Source of the DNA: Spirochaetota bacterium
GTDB taxonomy: Bacteria > Spirochaetota > UBA4802 > UBA5550
Direction of reading: 5' to 3'
Length of the DNA: 64,000 nt
Assembly: GCA_050298055.1 (NCBI GenBank)
Contig: JBNKTL010000019.1
Coordinates: 23,649-87,648, forward strand
Shown here piece by piece: positions 21,001 through 27,000 of the stretch. Made by a program: the position numbers. Within the stretch, counting starts at the first letter, position 1, and each line of letters begins with the position of its first letter.

Positions 21001-24000
21001 GGCGCCGCATTCCATACAGAGGTCCCGGTTGACCAGTTCCGCCTTATTCCCCTTCATTCTGAAAACCTCATGGGGACAGACCTGTGTACAGAGAGTACAT
21101 CCCGTGCATCTTTCACTGTCATACTTTAACGTGGTAACATTTTTTAAATAGGTTAATCCAAACATACGCTCTCCCCAAATAAAAACTCACACAATCTTTT
21201 AAAGAAACCTGCTGATAATAAACAATACCAGCCCTGCCGATGCCGCAACTGCCTGTACCGGAACAGCAATCTTCAACTCCTTCATAACTCCGGAGAGTGA
21301 AGTAAATGTTGTTGATCCCGTAAAATTCATGGCAAAAAACGAAGTTATTGAAAGAGTAAGCAGCAGCAGGGACACGAGCTCTACATATCCCCCGCCGTTA
21401 AAACCGGGTAAGAAGAAATAGAGCATGCAATAAAGAAAAATGCCGGAAATAAGACCTTTAAAAGAAAAGGCCCTTCCCGGAATAAAGGGAATCAAAAGTG
21501 GTGTTATGACTGTTCCCGCAAGAAATGCCAGGATGAGGACAAGTAACGGATGGGCACCCCGGCTGATAATATTATCAAGGGAAAAACCCCTGCTGCTTAT
21601 TCCGGAAAGTAAAAGAAAAACAGCAATTGCCATAAAGAGATATTTAAGGGCCAAAGAAAATTCAACCGGTGTCAAAATCAGCCTGCTGATAAATCCGAAA
21701 CGGACTCTCCTCATCTCTCTGTCTGCCTTCATTCCCGCATCAAGAAACCTCTTGATGTCCGCAGCCCTCACCGGACCGTAAACAGGCTTAAAGCCGGTCT
21801 CCCGTGCCACAATATGCGCTGCCACACCGGGAGCGCCAAGCTGGGGGAGGATAACCCTTCTGTGACTGACAACTTTCCCAAGAGAAGCAATTTTTATCCT
21901 TTTAATCATTTCATCCGTACCGAAAGTCCCTTTTCCTGCAGCGCACCATACATTGATCCCCTTTGTATCCAGGACCAGTATCCAGGCATTAATTCCGGAT
22001 AAATGACTTCTCAGGTGATCAAAACTCAGCTTGTAATTAGCTGAAACAAGTACCGGTGAGTTTTTATCAGGATCTCCCGCGGCATAAAGACCCGGTGCTA
22101 TCATATAGTTGTCTCTGCCAATATTGAGCCTTACCTTTACGGTCCCTGCCCGGTCCCGGGCAGAGAGCTGAGTATTAACTTTCGGTATCCTCCCTGCGGC
22201 TGTTTCCACATAACCCTTTACATCAAGATCCCGGTATGAAGTTTTCTGTTTCGACTTCCCATCCGGTCCGCAACAGGAACTTTTTGTGATAACCGGCAGC
22301 GGCTGTGAGCTATTTTTAATGGTTGGCTTCTTTTCCGATATATTCGGTCCTGTTGCTTTCATGCTTTGATTATTCTCCTTTTTGCAGAGGATTACAGCAT
22401 CCCAAAACAGGTTTACTCACTGCAGTGTCCAGAAGCTTTAAAGAGTTAATAACATCTTCCCTTTTTCCCACAGGGATGTTTCCCAGGATTTCTCCTGTAT
22501 ATTCCAGAGAACAGCTGTGAAGTTTCTTCTGAAGATTTAAACCCTTTTTCGATAATACGAGAAAAACCTTTCTTCTGTCATTTTCACTGCGGTTTCTTTT
22601 GACGATTCCATCCCTGACAAGAAGGTCAACCACTCTTGTTAACGTGCTGGTTGCCAGTCCCGTTTCGTCGCTGAGACGGTTCATGGATATCTCTTCATTC
22701 TCATGAATGATTTCAATTATCTGGCACTGTGATACCGTCACACCATGGCAGATCTTTTCGTTCCTGTCTATCCTGTTTACCTTTCTTAAAAGATTTTTCA
22801 GGATCAGTGTAAATTCTCTGTTCTCGTTATTATCCATTTTAATAATTGTATACTACAAATATATTATAATACAAGTAAATGTCAAGGAAAAAATTTAAAA
22901 ACCGGTTATTGGAATTAGATTGAATAAATAGCTGAGCAGCTGTTATGATGGTAAAATTTCACCCCCACGGGGCCTAATTTTTTCTTGTGAAAAATATAAT
23001 TATCAATTACACTTACCTGTGCTCAGCAACGGAGAGAAAAATTTTACATAACTCAAAAAACGGAGATACGGATGGAAACAATCAACGTTAAATCAGTAAG
23101 CAGCGAAGAACTCATTGAGATAACAGGGGAAGTGAGCAGGATAGTAAAAAACAGCGGGAAAAAAGAGGGGATCTGCATCATCTATACTCCCCATACAACC
23201 GCAGCCATCACCATAAATGAAAATGCAGACAGGACCGTAAAGAGTGATATTTTGAAAGGACTGAAACATCTCGATTTTGAAAGAGTCAGGTTTGATCACG
23301 GAGAAGGCAATTCTCCCTCACATCTCAAATCATCAATCATCGGCTGTTCCGAAACATTAATGATAAACAGAGGTTCTCTTGAACTGGGGACCTGGCAGGG
23401 GATCTTCTTCTGCGAATTTGACGGTCCCCGGTCAAGGAAAGTCCATATAAAAGTTCTATAAGGAAAAAAGGAGGCCTATGATGAAGTTATCCAGTTCCGC
23501 ATTTCAGGCAGGTGAAATGATACCTGCAGTCTACACGTGCGACAGTGATAATATATCACCGCCGCTCTCATGGAACGATGTACCGGACAAGACGGCAAGC
23601 TTTGCCCTCATTAACGATGATCCCGACGCGCCCCGGGGATGGGTCCACTGGGTCATATACAATATTCCCGCGGCTTCAACCGGTCTGGAAAAAGGAGTAA
23701 AAACTTCCGGCGTCCTTCCCGACGGCTCCGTCCAGGGAAGGAACGACTTCAGAAAAACCGGTTACGGGGGACCCTGCCCTCCCGGTGGAACTCACAGGTA
23801 TTACTTCAGGCTCTATGCCCTTGATACCCTCCTTGAAAAAACAGAGGGAATGACAAAAACCGAACTACTGGGAAAAATGAAAGGCCACATCCTCGCGGAA
23901 GCCGAACTCATGGGAAGATACAGCAGATCTTAGCCTGGAAGGGAAACCATCTCCTGAAAAAGATCATCGTACACGGAACAGATGTTCCCCCAGTCAAATC

Positions 24001-27000
24001 TGCCCACCTCTGATCTGAGCTGATCGGTGCATATTGCGGGAAAGTCATCCATCATCTCTTTGAGCTTCACAACAAGCTCTTCTCTCTCCCGGTAAAAAAA
24101 CCTCTTAAATTCATCACCGGGGAAGAGCTCGGGATAGGTAAGCCTGACCGGGAGAAGAGGCACTGTTCTGCAGTACACCGCTTCGGCAATGCTGATACCA
24201 AAAAAGTCCTGGTTTGATGTTACAGGAAGAATATCCGCCATCCAGAGCCACCGGGCATACTCTTTAAAACTTTCCACATACCCGTACTTCACTATTCTGT
24301 CACCATACCTTGCCCTGGCTTTCTCAAATTCAGAAGGAGATTTCCTGAAATTTTCACCCAGAATCGCAAGGCTGAAACCGATCCCCTCCCTGTCTATCTC
24401 TTCCAGGACCCCGAAGAACTCACTGGGATTCTTGTCATACTCCCACCTGTGGTTCCAGAGGATAAGGGGGAGATCACTCTTTCCCCTTTCCGGGATGCTG
24501 ATACTGTCATACCTGTCAAGGGGCAGGCCCAGATGAAGGACCCTGCTCTTTTCACGAATGAACTCCACTTTATCAAGCTCATTGAAGTCGGGAAACTGTT
24601 TCAGGAAACCGGGGAGGGCATCCAGGAAGCTGTTTCTGTGAAATTCCGAGTTAAAAAGTACGTGGTCCGCGGCAAGTGCCGATGAAAAATTGATAAAACC
24701 GTAATGGCTGTCCCTGCTGTTTATAATATCCCTGTCAGCAGGTGACCAGGGATACGTGACCTGATTTTCATGAAAATAGAGGACCACGGGGATATTACGG
24801 CACTCCCTCCTGGTAAGTGAAAGGAAGACAGTGAGATCAAGCATATCCGAAGCGACAATAAGATCGGGCCTTGGGGAAAGTTCTCTGTACATCTGTGCAA
24901 GAGTAACGGCGCCCCCATGCATTCTCCACTTCCAGTATCTTCCGGGCAGGCCCAATACAGTCACTTCATGCCTGCTCTTTTCCCGTATCCCCTCAATCCA
25001 TAATTTATGGGACCCGGTATAAAAGGGTTCGACAAAGAGGATCTTCATTTTTCAGTTTAACAAATGAAAGCACTTTGTATATTATTTTGTTGACACATGG
25101 TAATTCAATAACATATATTAATCACCTCTGAGTAAAGTGAAAAAATCGAAAAAGAGGACATGATAATGAAAAGATATATTATCCTTATTACTGCCTTTGC
25201 CCTGCTGCTTGCGGCTTCAGGTGATCTCAGGGCGGAGTGTATAAGCGGCAACTGTAAGGAGGGAAGCGGAACGAAGATATATCCCAGCGGCAGCAAGTAC
25301 ACAGGTGAATTCAAAGACGGGAAAGAGCATGGGAAAGGGACACTCTACTTTTTTAACGGAAGCAGTTATGAGGGCGAATTCAGGAACGGGGAATTCCATG
25401 GTAAAGGGAAAATCAGGTATTCCAACGGAAGTGAATACCAGGGGCAGTTCCTTGAAGGGAAGATAACCGGCGAAGGTGAATTTATCCCCCCGAAAATGAT
25501 GGAAGAGGTCAGGAGCATCCCTGACATCCTCCCGGAGAAGACAGATATTTTCATCACGGTGCCTTCAATATCAGACATCTACCGGCACTTCTCAATAAGA
25601 AGGGACAGAATTTTCGGAAATCCTGTAAAGGAAATATCAAAAATTGAGAAAAACCTCGGTATTAATCCCCTCTCCATCTGGGACCTTAAGTCAATTGGTA
25701 TCGACACCACCAGGGAAACGGGATTTTTTATTTCCGGACTGAAGATAGAGAAAAAGAAAAAACCGGTTATGAATGTTTTCTTATATTTACCTCTTTCCGA
25801 TAACCAGCTCTTCATGCAGAGAATAAAAAGCGCAATTGAGAAAAACGCCCCCAAAGTGACCTTTACTGAAAAAGACGGGTATACGGTTATGGGAAAGGAG
25901 GGGCAGAAAGACAAGATCTATATGATAAAGATAAAGAACTATCTTCTGATCGGTACAAACACAAACGGAGACGCTGTTCCAACAATAAAGAGGATACTCT
26001 CAGGAGAAAGCAACCTTCAAAAGTCAAAGCAATACAGGGATTTTTCTTCACGGTTCAAATCTTCAGGAAAGATATATTGCTACGCTGATATTGAAGGAAT
26101 ATTAAACAACAACAGGGATGCCTTTAAAAAACTTTACAAATCATTAAAGGTATATGACAGGAATTCAATTGAAAAGTTGATGAATGCCTACCAGGACTAC
26201 AGGAACGCCGCTCTCACCCTGGACCTTGAAAACAGTGACTTTAATCTCGATATTTATTACCTGCTCAAACCCCGGGCAAAAACACTTTCACTCTTCAAAG
26301 GAATTATCTTTAACAGAACAAGTATACTGGGAATAGAAAAAAATCCGATTTTTCTGGCTATACTCGGTTTTAATACGGAGCAATACTACAAGTATTTCAT
26401 GTCAATGATGCCCGAAATTTTTTCAAAATCCCTGAAGAAGAAATTCGCGGATATCAGGAAAGAATACAAACTGGATGTTGAAAAGGAGATCATCCCCAAC
26501 CTGGGAGGAAATTTTAACCTGGGAATGTACGACGGGAAGACCCTGAACATGTTCAACTACAACGCTCTTCTCACATTAACCGTAAAGAACAGAAGGACAT
26601 TTGAAAAGGCCATTAAGAAGATAACAAAGACTGTACCGAAAGAGATGAAAATGAGAGAAAAAATCGCCGGGGTCAATACCGATGTCTACTCCATGGGAAT
26701 GGTGAAAATCTATTCTGCCTTTAAAGGTAACCAGTTTATCCTCTCTCCGAGCAAACCTGTTTTTGAAGAGGCACTCAGGGCAAAAAAAACCGGCGGTTTC
26801 ACTAAGACAATGAAAGATAAAAAACTCGTTGCTTCAATGAAAAAGGATATCTCAATGCTCTATATAAATGTTGACGAAGCTGTTCTGGCCTTAAGAAACT
26901 TCGGTCCCATGTCAAAGTTGAATTCACCGGATCTGCAAAACCAGATCAAGAAGTTTGTTTATCTTCTCATCTCCAGCAAAATTAAAAAGACCTTTATTTC

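Follow-up and report, generated by a model that had tools for sequence, protein, structure and literature searches.

A spirochaete homologue of animal QTMAN as a predicted bacterial tRNA-queuosine glycosyltransferase

Do bacteria attach a sugar to the queuosine (Q) of their tRNAs, as animal cells do? In the literature that we searched, sugar-bearing queuosines (manQ and galQ) are described for animal tRNA only, and no bacterial tRNA with glycosylated queuosine was found; current work deals with what they do in translation speed, growth, ageing and the protection of tRNA from cleavage. The question is raised by a protein, here called P0001, which is encoded in the genome of a Spirochaetota bacterium and which a first-pass annotation had read as a queuosine glycosyltransferase. 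The window, that is, the whole stretch of DNA that we analysed, is 64,000 nucleotides long. Judging from its sequence, we slightly favour the prediction that P0001 is a glycosyltransferase that works in the cytoplasm and adds a sugar to Q34 of a tRNA with a GUN anticodon.

The gene and its features are located as follows (window coordinates, with no offset):

23930..25048, minus strand: P0001 gene, QTMAN-family glycosyltransferase, 372 aa (ORF list, translation, Pfam)
24524..25045, minus strand: QTMAN_N (PF12038) domain, residues 2-175, acceptor-side Rossmann half (Pfam E 1.3e-62, model 1-168 of 168)
24047..24478, minus strand: C-terminal GT1-type donor-side domain, residues 191-334 (Pfam Glycos_transf_1 E 4e-06; invariant columns; AF2; Foldseek)
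25081..25108, minus strand: weak sigma-70-like promoter match, TTGAAT-16-AATAAT, 9/12 (consensus scan), within the 111 bp between the P0001 gene and its divergent upstream neighbour

The open reading frame begins with ATG, and both the ORF list and the translation bear out the position and length given earlier. The gene is monocistronic; on its 3' side a convergent gene ends at 23933 (+), with an overlap of 4 bp, and on its 5' side a divergent gene starts at 25160 (+). The promoter match was graded as weak because the consensus scan returned 5 sites, compared with 2.4 expected in shuffles. A profile search of the whole genome found one copy of the gene, with the QTMAN_N match at the same place.

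P0001 is a true bacterial homologue of animal QTMAN (GTDC1) over its full length. The full-model QTMAN_N match and the weaker Glycos_transf_1 match that had been claimed were both found again, the former with 210.9 bits (cut-off 25) and the latter with 26.9 bits (cut-off 26.4). The end-to-end homology to animal QTMAN-family proteins was likewise recovered with other animal sequences, namely a prawn protein in its QTMAN-like portion (32% identity, residues 2-364, E 1e-56) and four tapeworm proteins (33-35% identity). Note that the prawn RRM-QTMAN protein may be a gene-model artefact; among 7 longer family proteins there was no informative bacterial fusion.

Next, we asked how widely the family is spread. 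Among 8000 scored clusters, 6707 are homologous to P0001 at E<=1e-5, and the earlier scan of bacterial genome contigs could be reproduced: 595 of 599 stretches encode a relative, the best 80 at 49-58% identity. Within the phylum, the gene was found in 14 of 401 genomes, this one included, which is a lower prevalence in the sample used here than the 154 of 2011 reported before. Two Atlas clusters of the family are commonest in Actinomycetota. Cultured bacteria with the gene include Chloroflexus, Geothermobacter hydrogeniphilus, Desulfuromonas soudanensis, Balneola, Flavilitoribacter nigricans and Thermohalobacter berrensis. Searches with P0001 and with the family alignment found no relative among plasmids, phage records or viral contigs. 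The family is more similar between genomes than QueA is (median identity 53.4% vs 40.8%, in 19 of 19 genome pairs). We do not take this as a sign of constraint, since only the best matches to P0001 had entered the set of loci; combined with the patchy distribution, the comparison points to a horizontal spread of the gene. As an annotation, the idea of a bacterial QTMAN turned out not to be novel: UniRef and NCBI already name bacterial members [quoted passage not shown], by homology. JGI, on the other hand, calls members "involved in cell wall biosynthesis".

The fold of P0001 can be assigned with confidence, on the basis of the model, as retaining GT-B. The AF2 model has a pLDDT of 92.8 and a pTM of 0.91, and among solved structures Foldseek places it nearest to retaining GT-B enzymes, for instance GlgM, PglA, MshA, BshA and PimA (TM 0.6-0.7, identity 12-16%), with sucrose-phosphate synthase also among them. 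A sequence search of the PDB gave no matching chain (best E 0.13), and the PDB holds no QTMAN structure.

In GT-B enzymes the N-domain is the side that faces the acceptor. Aligning 22 bacterial and 5 animal sequences left 48 invariant columns, aligning 120 bacterial and 5 animal sequences left 33, and about half of the invariant columns fall in the N-domain. In the larger set, the invariant residues include G12 S13 H14, W39 W41 R42, Y91 H93 E94 N95 Q96 Y99 P100 and N133 in QTMAN_N, and W198 H200 R201 W202 D205 K206 P208 and F282 F283 G284 in the C-domain. K206, which lies within the motif R-W-E/D-x-D-K-N/D-P, and R201 probably take the position of the diphosphate-binding Lys/Arg of GT4 enzymes. 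According to the accessible part of a preprint, human QTMAN makes an alpha-glycoside from GDP-mannose and loses its activity in the K296A mutant of the catalytic Lys296 (bioRxiv 10.64898/2026.06.28.735034). The retaining fold of P0001 fits such an alpha-glycoside product, and Lys296 may correspond to K206.

P0001 is acidic, with a pI of 5.5 (the median over 120 homologues is 6.2); tRNA enzymes are not usually so acidic, but this does not rule out such a role. Kyte-Doolittle means over 19 residues reach 1.25 at most, so that by this crude test there is no hydrophobic segment and no membrane or envelope signal. Among the 57 same-strand annotated neighbours and in the neighbourhoods of 80, 15 and 40 loci we found no polysaccharide, LPS or capsule cluster around the gene; in Chloroflexales, too, there is no further glycosyltransferase nearby. 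Both results speak against a cell-envelope GT4 enzyme.

We infer the acceptor, the donor and the target tRNA, as well as any consequence for decoding or for the stability of the tRNA, from this kinship. On this view P0001, a glycosyltransferase of the QTMAN family, would be a soluble retaining GT-B enzyme of the cytoplasm. It would use a nucleotide sugar and act on a tRNA with a GUN anticodon that already carries queuosine at position 34, attaching the sugar to the cyclopentenediol of this queuosine to yield glycosyl-queuosine. By analogy with animal QTMAN only, GDP-mannose would serve as the donor and tRNA-Asp as the target. In this spirochaete, de novo synthesis by way of QueC, QueF, Tgt, QueA and QueH would supply the queuosine.

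Is the acceptor available in the host and in other carriers of the gene? Of the queuosine genes that had been listed for this genome, profile searches found again Tgt, QueA, QueH, QueC and QueF. The tRNA-Asp(GTC) gene reported at C3:132776 is there as well and spans 132776-132850; tRNA-Tyr(GTA) and tRNA-His(GTG) are also present, and tRNA-Asn(GTT) was not found in the 199-contig assembly. The host thus has the genes for Q at position 34 together with GUN tRNAs to carry it. All 79 carrier genomes are able to put a 7-deazaguanine at this position, 65 of them with QueA (sets of 50/50 and 13/13, this genome and genome G536) and 14 with Tgt and no QueA. However, QueA does not discriminate outside Chloroflexota, since it occurs in 63/63 carriers there and in 47/50 non-carrier spirochaetes. 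ManC-like genes are equally uninformative as a sign of GDP-mannose supply (62/64 carriers vs 45/50 non-carriers). They occur in 2 of 15 Chloroflexota carriers, and a ManC-type enzyme is found in 0/13 genomes of the Chloroflexales clade; the ManC model was silent in a Corynebacterium control and therefore probably misses some GDP-mannose enzymes. To our knowledge, GluQRS (YadB) is the one bacterial enzyme known to decorate the cyclopentenediol of Q34 further, on tRNA-Asp. Its family, queuosine_YadB, is absent from the host genome and above cut-off in 4/64 carriers, so that mutual exclusion with the P0001 family was rejected. An enrichment of Qng1 among carriers was rejected too (4/79, two of these weak).

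A more telling case is that of Chloroflexota, for which we sampled 201 genomes, 23 of them without Tgt. None of these 23 has the gene, and Tgt is present in 16/16 carriers of this phylum. Among genomes that lack QueA, the gene occurs in 14/32 with Tgt and in 0/23 without it (Fisher p 1.2e-4), whereas over the whole sample the association is not significant (p 0.22). The 14 Tgt-only carriers are Chloroflexales, relatives of Chloroflexus. Because they form one clade (support 100/99), their signal is essentially one event and the statistics are weak; phyletic tests in general are weak here, as nearly every bacterium has queuosine and this single clade supplies the informative cases. Five Chloroflexales representatives have no QueA, QueC, QueF, QueG or QueH in profile searches and keep tgt. 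The Tgt passes the equivalog cut-off, and 6 of 6 inspected sequences have Gly at the Val233 position, which, according to the portions of two reports available to us, opens the pocket for queuine (PMC3660597; PMC11570991). Most of these carriers have a second, diverged Tgt paralogue as well. Chloroflexales hence keep queuine insertion alone among the Q steps and keep the P0001-family gene, which is the arrangement seen in animals. We counted this absence from Tgt-less Chloroflexota, together with Tgt or QueA in 79/79 carriers, in favour of a role at Q34.

The gene neighbourhoods were less helpful. It had been stated that no queuosine gene lies near the homologue in any of 80 loci; this is wrong for one of them (L054), where tgt is the next gene, convergent and about 120-150 bp downstream, and which is the only locus with a queuosine-pathway gene in its flanks among 133. 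A conserved pairing with tgt was rejected, as 1 of 40 loci of the same order shows it. No partner gene is conserved across lineages in the 133 loci. What recurs is lineage-specific: proS/ispG in 3 Desulfuromonadales, smpB-side synteny with a tRNA-Leu in Marinimicrobia, an alpha/beta hydrolase just downstream in 9/133 loci and a TadA-like deaminase in one. A stand-alone gene with no cluster and no partner suggests an enzyme whose substrates are already present in every host.

In summary, homology, invariant residues, fold, the presence of Tgt or QueA in all carriers, retention in Chloroflexales, the stand-alone gene and the one tgt neighbour speak for the first-pass reading of a queuosine glycosyltransferase; the lack of queuosine genes near the other 132 loci, the coexistence with GluQRS, the acidic pI and, in Chloroflexales, the cell-wall-type neighbours and the missing ManC-type enzyme speak against it, and the parts that named mannose and tRNA-Asp found no support.

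The acceptor often changes between GT-B enzymes that share about 33% identity. Potentially, then, the QTMAN scaffold serves in bacteria to glycosylate something else that is just as ubiquitous in the cytoplasm, for instance a protein, the head group of a lipid or a small metabolite (e.g. a thiol precursor or a compatible solute), and the tRNA role in animals is a lineage-specific specialisation. We consider this possible, if rather doubtful. It would suit the nearest solved folds, which are GT4 enzymes of small molecules and lipids, the acidic pI, the 132 of 133 loci with no link to queuosine genes and the coexistence with GluQRS. Many carriers belong, by their record titles, to marine or saline lineages, in line with a solute as acceptor, and the hydrolase downstream of the gene points in the same direction, as does the Chloroflexales neighbourhood, in which LytR-CpsA-Psr (LCP) and LysM genes lie 2-4 genes upstream and an esterase nearby. 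On the other hand, nothing in the protein is as family-specific as the acceptor-side N-domain, whose signature residues are invariant from animals to bacteria, no partner enzyme such as a phosphatase is conserved across lineages, and the cell-wall name used by JGI is a generic label for GT1 domains. The Tgt or QueA present in every carrier, and the tgt-only Chloroflexales, also argue against another acceptor. Glycosylation of a 7-deazaguanine elsewhere, in DNA or as free queuine or queuosine in salvage, would fit the queuine salvage of the Chloroflexales carriers and the Qng1 of one genome (G642), but seems very improbable to us in view of the lack of viral and plasmid relatives, of QueC, QueF, Tgt, QueA or QueH beside the gene in the 133 loci (save the one tgt in L054; no search was aimed at DpdA or other dpd genes as such), the scarcity of Qng1 and tRNA being the proven substrate of the QTMAN family.

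If the prediction of a Q34 glycosyltransferase holds, sugar-modified queuosine extends to a second domain of life, and the bacterial enzyme offers a tractable system for structure and mechanism which bears on the origin of the animal enzyme; it could be studied simply, in Chloroflexus or in E. coli made to express P0001. More tentatively, and with a little less than even confidence, we suggest that glycosylated queuosine made by this family exists in the tRNA of a few percent of bacterial species, that Chloroflexales run the whole "animal" scheme (queuine import, a Gly-pocket Tgt, perhaps with the second Tgt paralogue as its partner, and glycosylation), and that Q decoration of the QTMAN type is an old bacterial invention. 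The Chloroflexales pattern makes a second, separate prediction, that of free-living phototrophs dependent on scavenged queuine.

How does P0001 compare with known systems? GluQRS, a truncated GluRS that transfers glutamate, is also encoded by a stand-alone gene, but is unrelated in fold and chemistry. The retaining GT4 enzymes (BshA, MshA, PimA, PglA, GlgM) share the overall fold and probably the retaining mechanism, whereas their identity to P0001 is 12-16%, their N-domains are not QTMAN_N and their acceptors are small molecules, lipids and glycans. The second animal Q34 glycosylase, the tRNA-queuosine galactosyltransferase QTGAL (B3GNTL1), acts on tRNA-Tyr and makes a beta-glycoside from UDP-galactose, as far as the available part of the preprint goes (bioRxiv 10.64898/2026.06.28.735034); P0001 has no match to it, all Pfam hits being to QTMAN_N or GT4/GT1 families. 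Tgt-only queuine salvagers of the Chlamydia trachomatis type, for which the accessible text mentions no QTMAN-like gene, are matched by the Chloroflexales carriers in the lack of QueA/C/F/G/H and in the Gly at the Val233 position, with the motif GGSLG, whose fourth residue is Leu, instead of the published GG[LS][AS]G (PMC11570991). Compared with animal QTMAN, the bacterial proteins, at about 365-390 aa, are shorter, lack the animal insertions and have their own consensus in the loop at residues 100-120. Both combine QTMAN_N with a GT1-type C-domain, can be aligned over their whole length (32-35% identity), have invariant motifs in common and occur in organisms that hold Q-tRNA, and the Chloroflexales member, like the animal enzyme, accompanies a queuine-type Tgt without QueA.

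A full-length homologue of QTMAN (GTDC1), the animal tRNA-queuosine alpha-mannosyltransferase, had been reported for this spirochaete in the first-pass annotation, and the open reading frame, a match to the full QTMAN_N model and the alignment with an animal protein all confirm it. The gene and its neighbours, in window coordinates, are:
25048 to 23930, minus strand: P0001 gene, a 372-codon ORF, standing alone
4-bp overlap with the 3' end of the P0001 gene: convergent neighbour, a 151-aa gene
111 bp upstream of the P0001 gene: divergent neighbour, a 662-aa gene

Upstream, the intergenic region holds no more than a weak resemblance to a promoter. 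In Pfam, P0001 hits QTMAN_N along the full model (E 1.3e-62) and Glycos_transf_1 barely over the cut-off; no NCBIfam model and, by sequence, no PDB chain matched it. This is the only QTMAN_N gene in the genome. Note that P0001 is a member of a known family that already bears a name, as UniRef, NCBI and the Atlas label the bacterial members 'tRNA-queuosine alpha-mannosyltransferase (family/domain-containing) protein'. The founding QTMAN paper is reportedly that of Zhao et al. 2023, and our literature search found no paper on glycosylated queuosine in bacteria or on a characterised bacterial QTMAN homologue.

Among the longer relatives there are one prawn and four tapeworm proteins, named GTDC1 or tRNA-queuosine alpha-mannosyltransferase by their sources. 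The prawn protein aligns with residues 2-364 of P0001 (32% identity, E 1e-56). Aligning 22 bacterial with 5 animal sequences gives 48 invariant columns, of which 33 are left with 120 bacterial sequences. The N-domain invariants are G12-S13-H14, W39/W41/R42, Y91/H93-E94-N95-Q96/Y99-P100 and N133; those of the C-domain include W198/H200-R201-W202/D205-K206/P208 and F282-F283-G284. The N-domain is the acceptor side of GT-B enzymes, and no other sequence feature argues as strongly for a common acceptor as its invariance does. Human QTMAN requires Lys296, according to a preprint (bioRxiv 10.64898/2026.06.28.735034), and K206 is its putative counterpart in P0001. The prawn protein (P0123, 754 aa) carries two RRM domains besides a complete QTMAN-like region and is either a genuine fusion with RNA-binding domains or an artefact of merged gene models.

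The AlphaFold2 model of P0001 (pLDDT 92.8, pTM 0.91; 125-sequence alignment) has two Rossmann-like halves. A Foldseek search against the PDB returned retaining GT-B enzymes (GlgM, PglA, MshA, BshA, PimA, sucrose-phosphate and glycogen synthases) at TM 0.6-0.7 and 12-16% identity, and no close solved relative. A retaining mechanism, as these matches suggest, would fit the alpha-mannoside product of QTMAN given in bioRxiv 10.64898/2026.06.28.735034.

Scoring of 8000 candidates yielded 6707 clusters of bacterial relatives at E<=1e-5. Carriers of QTMAN_N are nevertheless patchy: 14 of the 401 genomes sampled in the phylum of the spirochaete, 16 of 201 in Chloroflexota, 41 of 151 in the order holding locus L054 (see below) and 0 of 14 control genomes. 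E. coli, a queuosine producer, is likewise without the family. The best 80 loci (49-58% identity to P0001) belong to Marinimicrobia, Desulfuromonadales/Desulfobacterales, Balneolaceae, Saprospiraceae/Chitinophagales, Anaerolineae, KSB1, Calditrichota, Acidobacteriota, an anammox planctomycete and a clostridial halophile. Cultured carriers include Chloroflexus spp., Oscillochloris, Geothermobacter hydrogeniphilus, Desulfuromonas soudanensis, Balneola sp., Flavilitoribacter nigricans and Thermohalobacter berrensis. In each of the 19 genome pairs compared, the homologue resembled P0001 more than QueA resembled the spirochaete QueA (median 53.4% vs 40.8%), a gap that we reject as a measure of constraint because the loci had been picked as best matches to P0001. 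For this reason, and given the patchiness, we read the distribution and the high similarity as horizontal spread. Plasmids, phage records and viral contigs yielded no relatives.

When ORFs were called in the 80 loci and clustered, each recurrent neighbour was restricted to a single lineage. Pfam annotation of the 57 same-strand neighbours within 150 bp of the homologue revealed no polysaccharide machinery and one TadA-like deaminase. The gene proS lies downstream in three Desulfuromonadales, with ispG upstream in two of these, an alpha/beta hydrolase gene lies downstream in Saprospiraceae-type loci and in L023, and an endonuclease/phosphatase-family gene stands beside the homologue in three Balneola; GNAT genes also occur. 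The earlier claim that no queuosine gene lies near any homologue had to be given up: tblastn with the spirochaete Tgt, QueA, QueH, QueC and QueF against 95 loci (1.45 Mb) found a single match, in L054, from an uncultured Chitinophagaceae genome.
L054, 11260-12201, minus strand: tgt, immediate convergent neighbour, about 120-150 bp downstream of the homologue (10001-11107, plus strand)

With 38 further loci added, this pairing occurred in 1 of 40 loci of the order and was absent from the 39 others, and is thus not conserved; the alpha/beta hydrolase pairing occurred in 0 of these 40 and in 9 of 133 loci overall. Having no conserved partner, the homologue behaves as a self-sufficient trait of one gene, so both of its substrates should be present in any recipient cell. 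Queuosine tRNA and a common nucleotide sugar would meet this demand, and other ubiquitous acceptors would meet it equally. That the enzyme acts on one of the latter is a possibility we take seriously, doubtful as it is, for the gene context leaves room for it and the invariant acceptor side speaks for an acceptor shared with the animal enzyme.

In Marinimicrobia a tRNA-Leu(CAG) gene lies upstream of the homologue on the same strand, about 30-490 bp away (mostly 30-175 bp):
L002, 3815-3899: tRNA-Leu(CAG)
L006, 9428-9512: tRNA-Leu(CAG)
L008, 9792-9876: tRNA-Leu(CAG)
L010, 9807-9891: tRNA-Leu(CAG)
L012, 7281-7365: tRNA-Leu(CAG)
L055, 7798-7884: tRNA-Leu(CAG)

With this arrangement they may share a transcript; tRNA-Leu does not belong to the queuosine tRNAs.

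The spirochaete genome encodes Tgt, QueA, QueH, QueC and QueF as well as tRNA-Asp, tRNA-Tyr and tRNA-His with GUN anticodons. QueA was present in 50 of 50 carriers reached via the loci (50 of the 80 were taken) and in 13 of 13 spirochaete carriers, compared with 47 of 50 non-carrier spirochaetes (the other three genomes are 71-89% complete), so that this test has no power in spirochaetes. ManC-like genes for GDP-mannose are similarly frequent in carriers (62/64) and non-carriers (45/50) and hence uninformative. GluQRS, which glutamylates queuosine at position 34 (Q34) of tRNA-Asp, exceeded its cut-off in 4 of 64 carriers, namely Geothermobacter, a Desulfuromonas and two 'delta proteobacteria', while no gene of the spirochaete reached it; the two ways of decorating Q34 thus do not exclude each other. 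Pooling all tests, 79 of 79 distinct carriers have QueA (65) or Tgt alone (14). In many Balneolaceae (G022, G023, G025, G029 and others) and Saprospiraceae/Chitinophagales, full-length QueA comes as two or three paralogues per genome, such as those of 423 and 390 bits on one Balneola chromosome; G013, G033, G045, G048 and G050 also belong to this set.

Chloroflexota are informative, since queuosine is patchy in this phylum. Our sample of 201 genomes (requested completeness at least 90%) includes three flagged as unpublished (G611, G476, G608), which are QueA-positive and QTMAN_N-negative and are counted only in that class. QueA was found in 146 genomes, yet in only 2 of the 16 carriers and not in the other 14, a negative association (2x2 table 2/14/144/41, Fisher p 2.6e-7). 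On the other hand, Tgt is present in 16 of 16 carriers vs 18 of 41 other QueA-less genomes. Within the QueA-less set, 14 of the 32 genomes that have Tgt carry QTMAN_N, against 0 of the 23 that lack Tgt (p 1.2e-4); over the whole sample, with QueA-positive genomes assumed to have Tgt, the association is not significant (p 0.22). In five representative QueA-less carriers we did not find QueC, QueF, QueG or QueH; the salvage enzyme Qng1 was found in one and a QPTR-family transporter in two.

The 11 sequences of QueA-less carriers in the tree form one clade (support 100/99; three carriers are missing because the ORF caller missed their ORFs), which makes this essentially one evolutionary event. 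The best matches of one member are named Chloroflexus, Oscillochloris, Chloroploca and Viridilinea. Neighbours in the clade include LCP, LysM and esterase genes, a PNPOx-like gene coupled by a 4-bp overlap, and a trio with the same synteny in L105, L106, L108, L109 and L111:
L104, 9979-12030: His_Phos_1 / DUF3090 / PI3_PI4-kinase-like trio, after the homologue and the PNPOx-like gene, in Chloroflexus-type genomes

None of 13 clade genomes yielded a ManC-type enzyme, so either mannose is doubtful as the sugar in Chloroflexales or another GDP-mannose enzyme operates there.

The main Tgt of the representative carriers scores 456 bits (equivalog cut-off 306.75). Its pocket motif is G-G-S-L-G in six of six inspected sequences, and five of them have D-E-L in place of D-E-C; the pockets of the spirochaete, G002 and G536 read GGLSVGE or GGLAVGE. 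PMC3660597 states that Val233->Gly and Cys158->Val separate queuine-inserting eukaryotic TGT from preQ1-inserting bacterial Tgt, and PMC11570991 that tgt-only bacteria, with pockets GG[LS][AS]G, are considered to salvage queuine. Most tgt-only Chloroflexales carriers also have a second, diverged Tgt paralogue, for example:
G647, C3:90104-91180: second Tgt paralogue (L119)
G639, C71:37870-38940: second Tgt paralogue (L124)
G591, C73:24896-25969: second Tgt paralogue (L127)

It scores about 316 bits, or 300.4 against the cut-off of 306.75, and retains the catalytic Asp and zinc-site columns with a pocket motif GGWPLD. Of the 14 carriers, 9 have an intact copy and 2 a fragmented one, and 1 of the 18 other QueA-less genomes with Tgt has the paralogue too. 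Its role could be that of a partner subunit, as QTRT2 is in eukaryotes, or of a transglycosylase on another substrate. G642, a Chloroflexota genome, has Qng1 (Q_salvage, E 1.5e-86) together with a Gly-pocket Tgt and the homologue, with none of QueA, QueC, QueF, QueG and QueH, and so holds a complete eukaryote-like queuosine tool kit:
C5:269441-270214: Qng1
C5:321798-322982: Tgt
C1:548772-549275: QTMAN_N

Two Atlas clusters of the family (ranks 9 and 13; 102 and 77 members) occur most often in Actinomycetota. PMC11570991 reports that most Mycobacteriales keep tgt as their only queuosine gene, and Actinomycetota may be another lineage of the 'tgt-only plus QTMAN' kind.

The Chloroflexales pattern and the invariant acceptor-side residues thus lend some strength to the earlier proposal of a bacterial queuosine glycosyltransferase, plausible by homology, to which gene context and the GluQRS test added weak or negative results. 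We lean, with some reserve, towards P0001 being a glycosyltransferase that would act on Q34 of tRNA; that it uses a non-tRNA deazaguanine substrate seems very unlikely. A yeast preprint states that queuosine-glycosylating enzymes were not found in Saccharomycotina. Mosquito manQ has been mapped to tRNA-His, so the target tRNA can vary even within animals. The mass-spectrometric transitions for queuosine and hexosyl-queuosine are 410->295/163 and 572->295/163 (PMC12313893). It appears that Chloroflexales have retained just two functions related to queuosine, queuine insertion and a QTMAN-type glycosyltransferase, and this is the arrangement that is found in animals.
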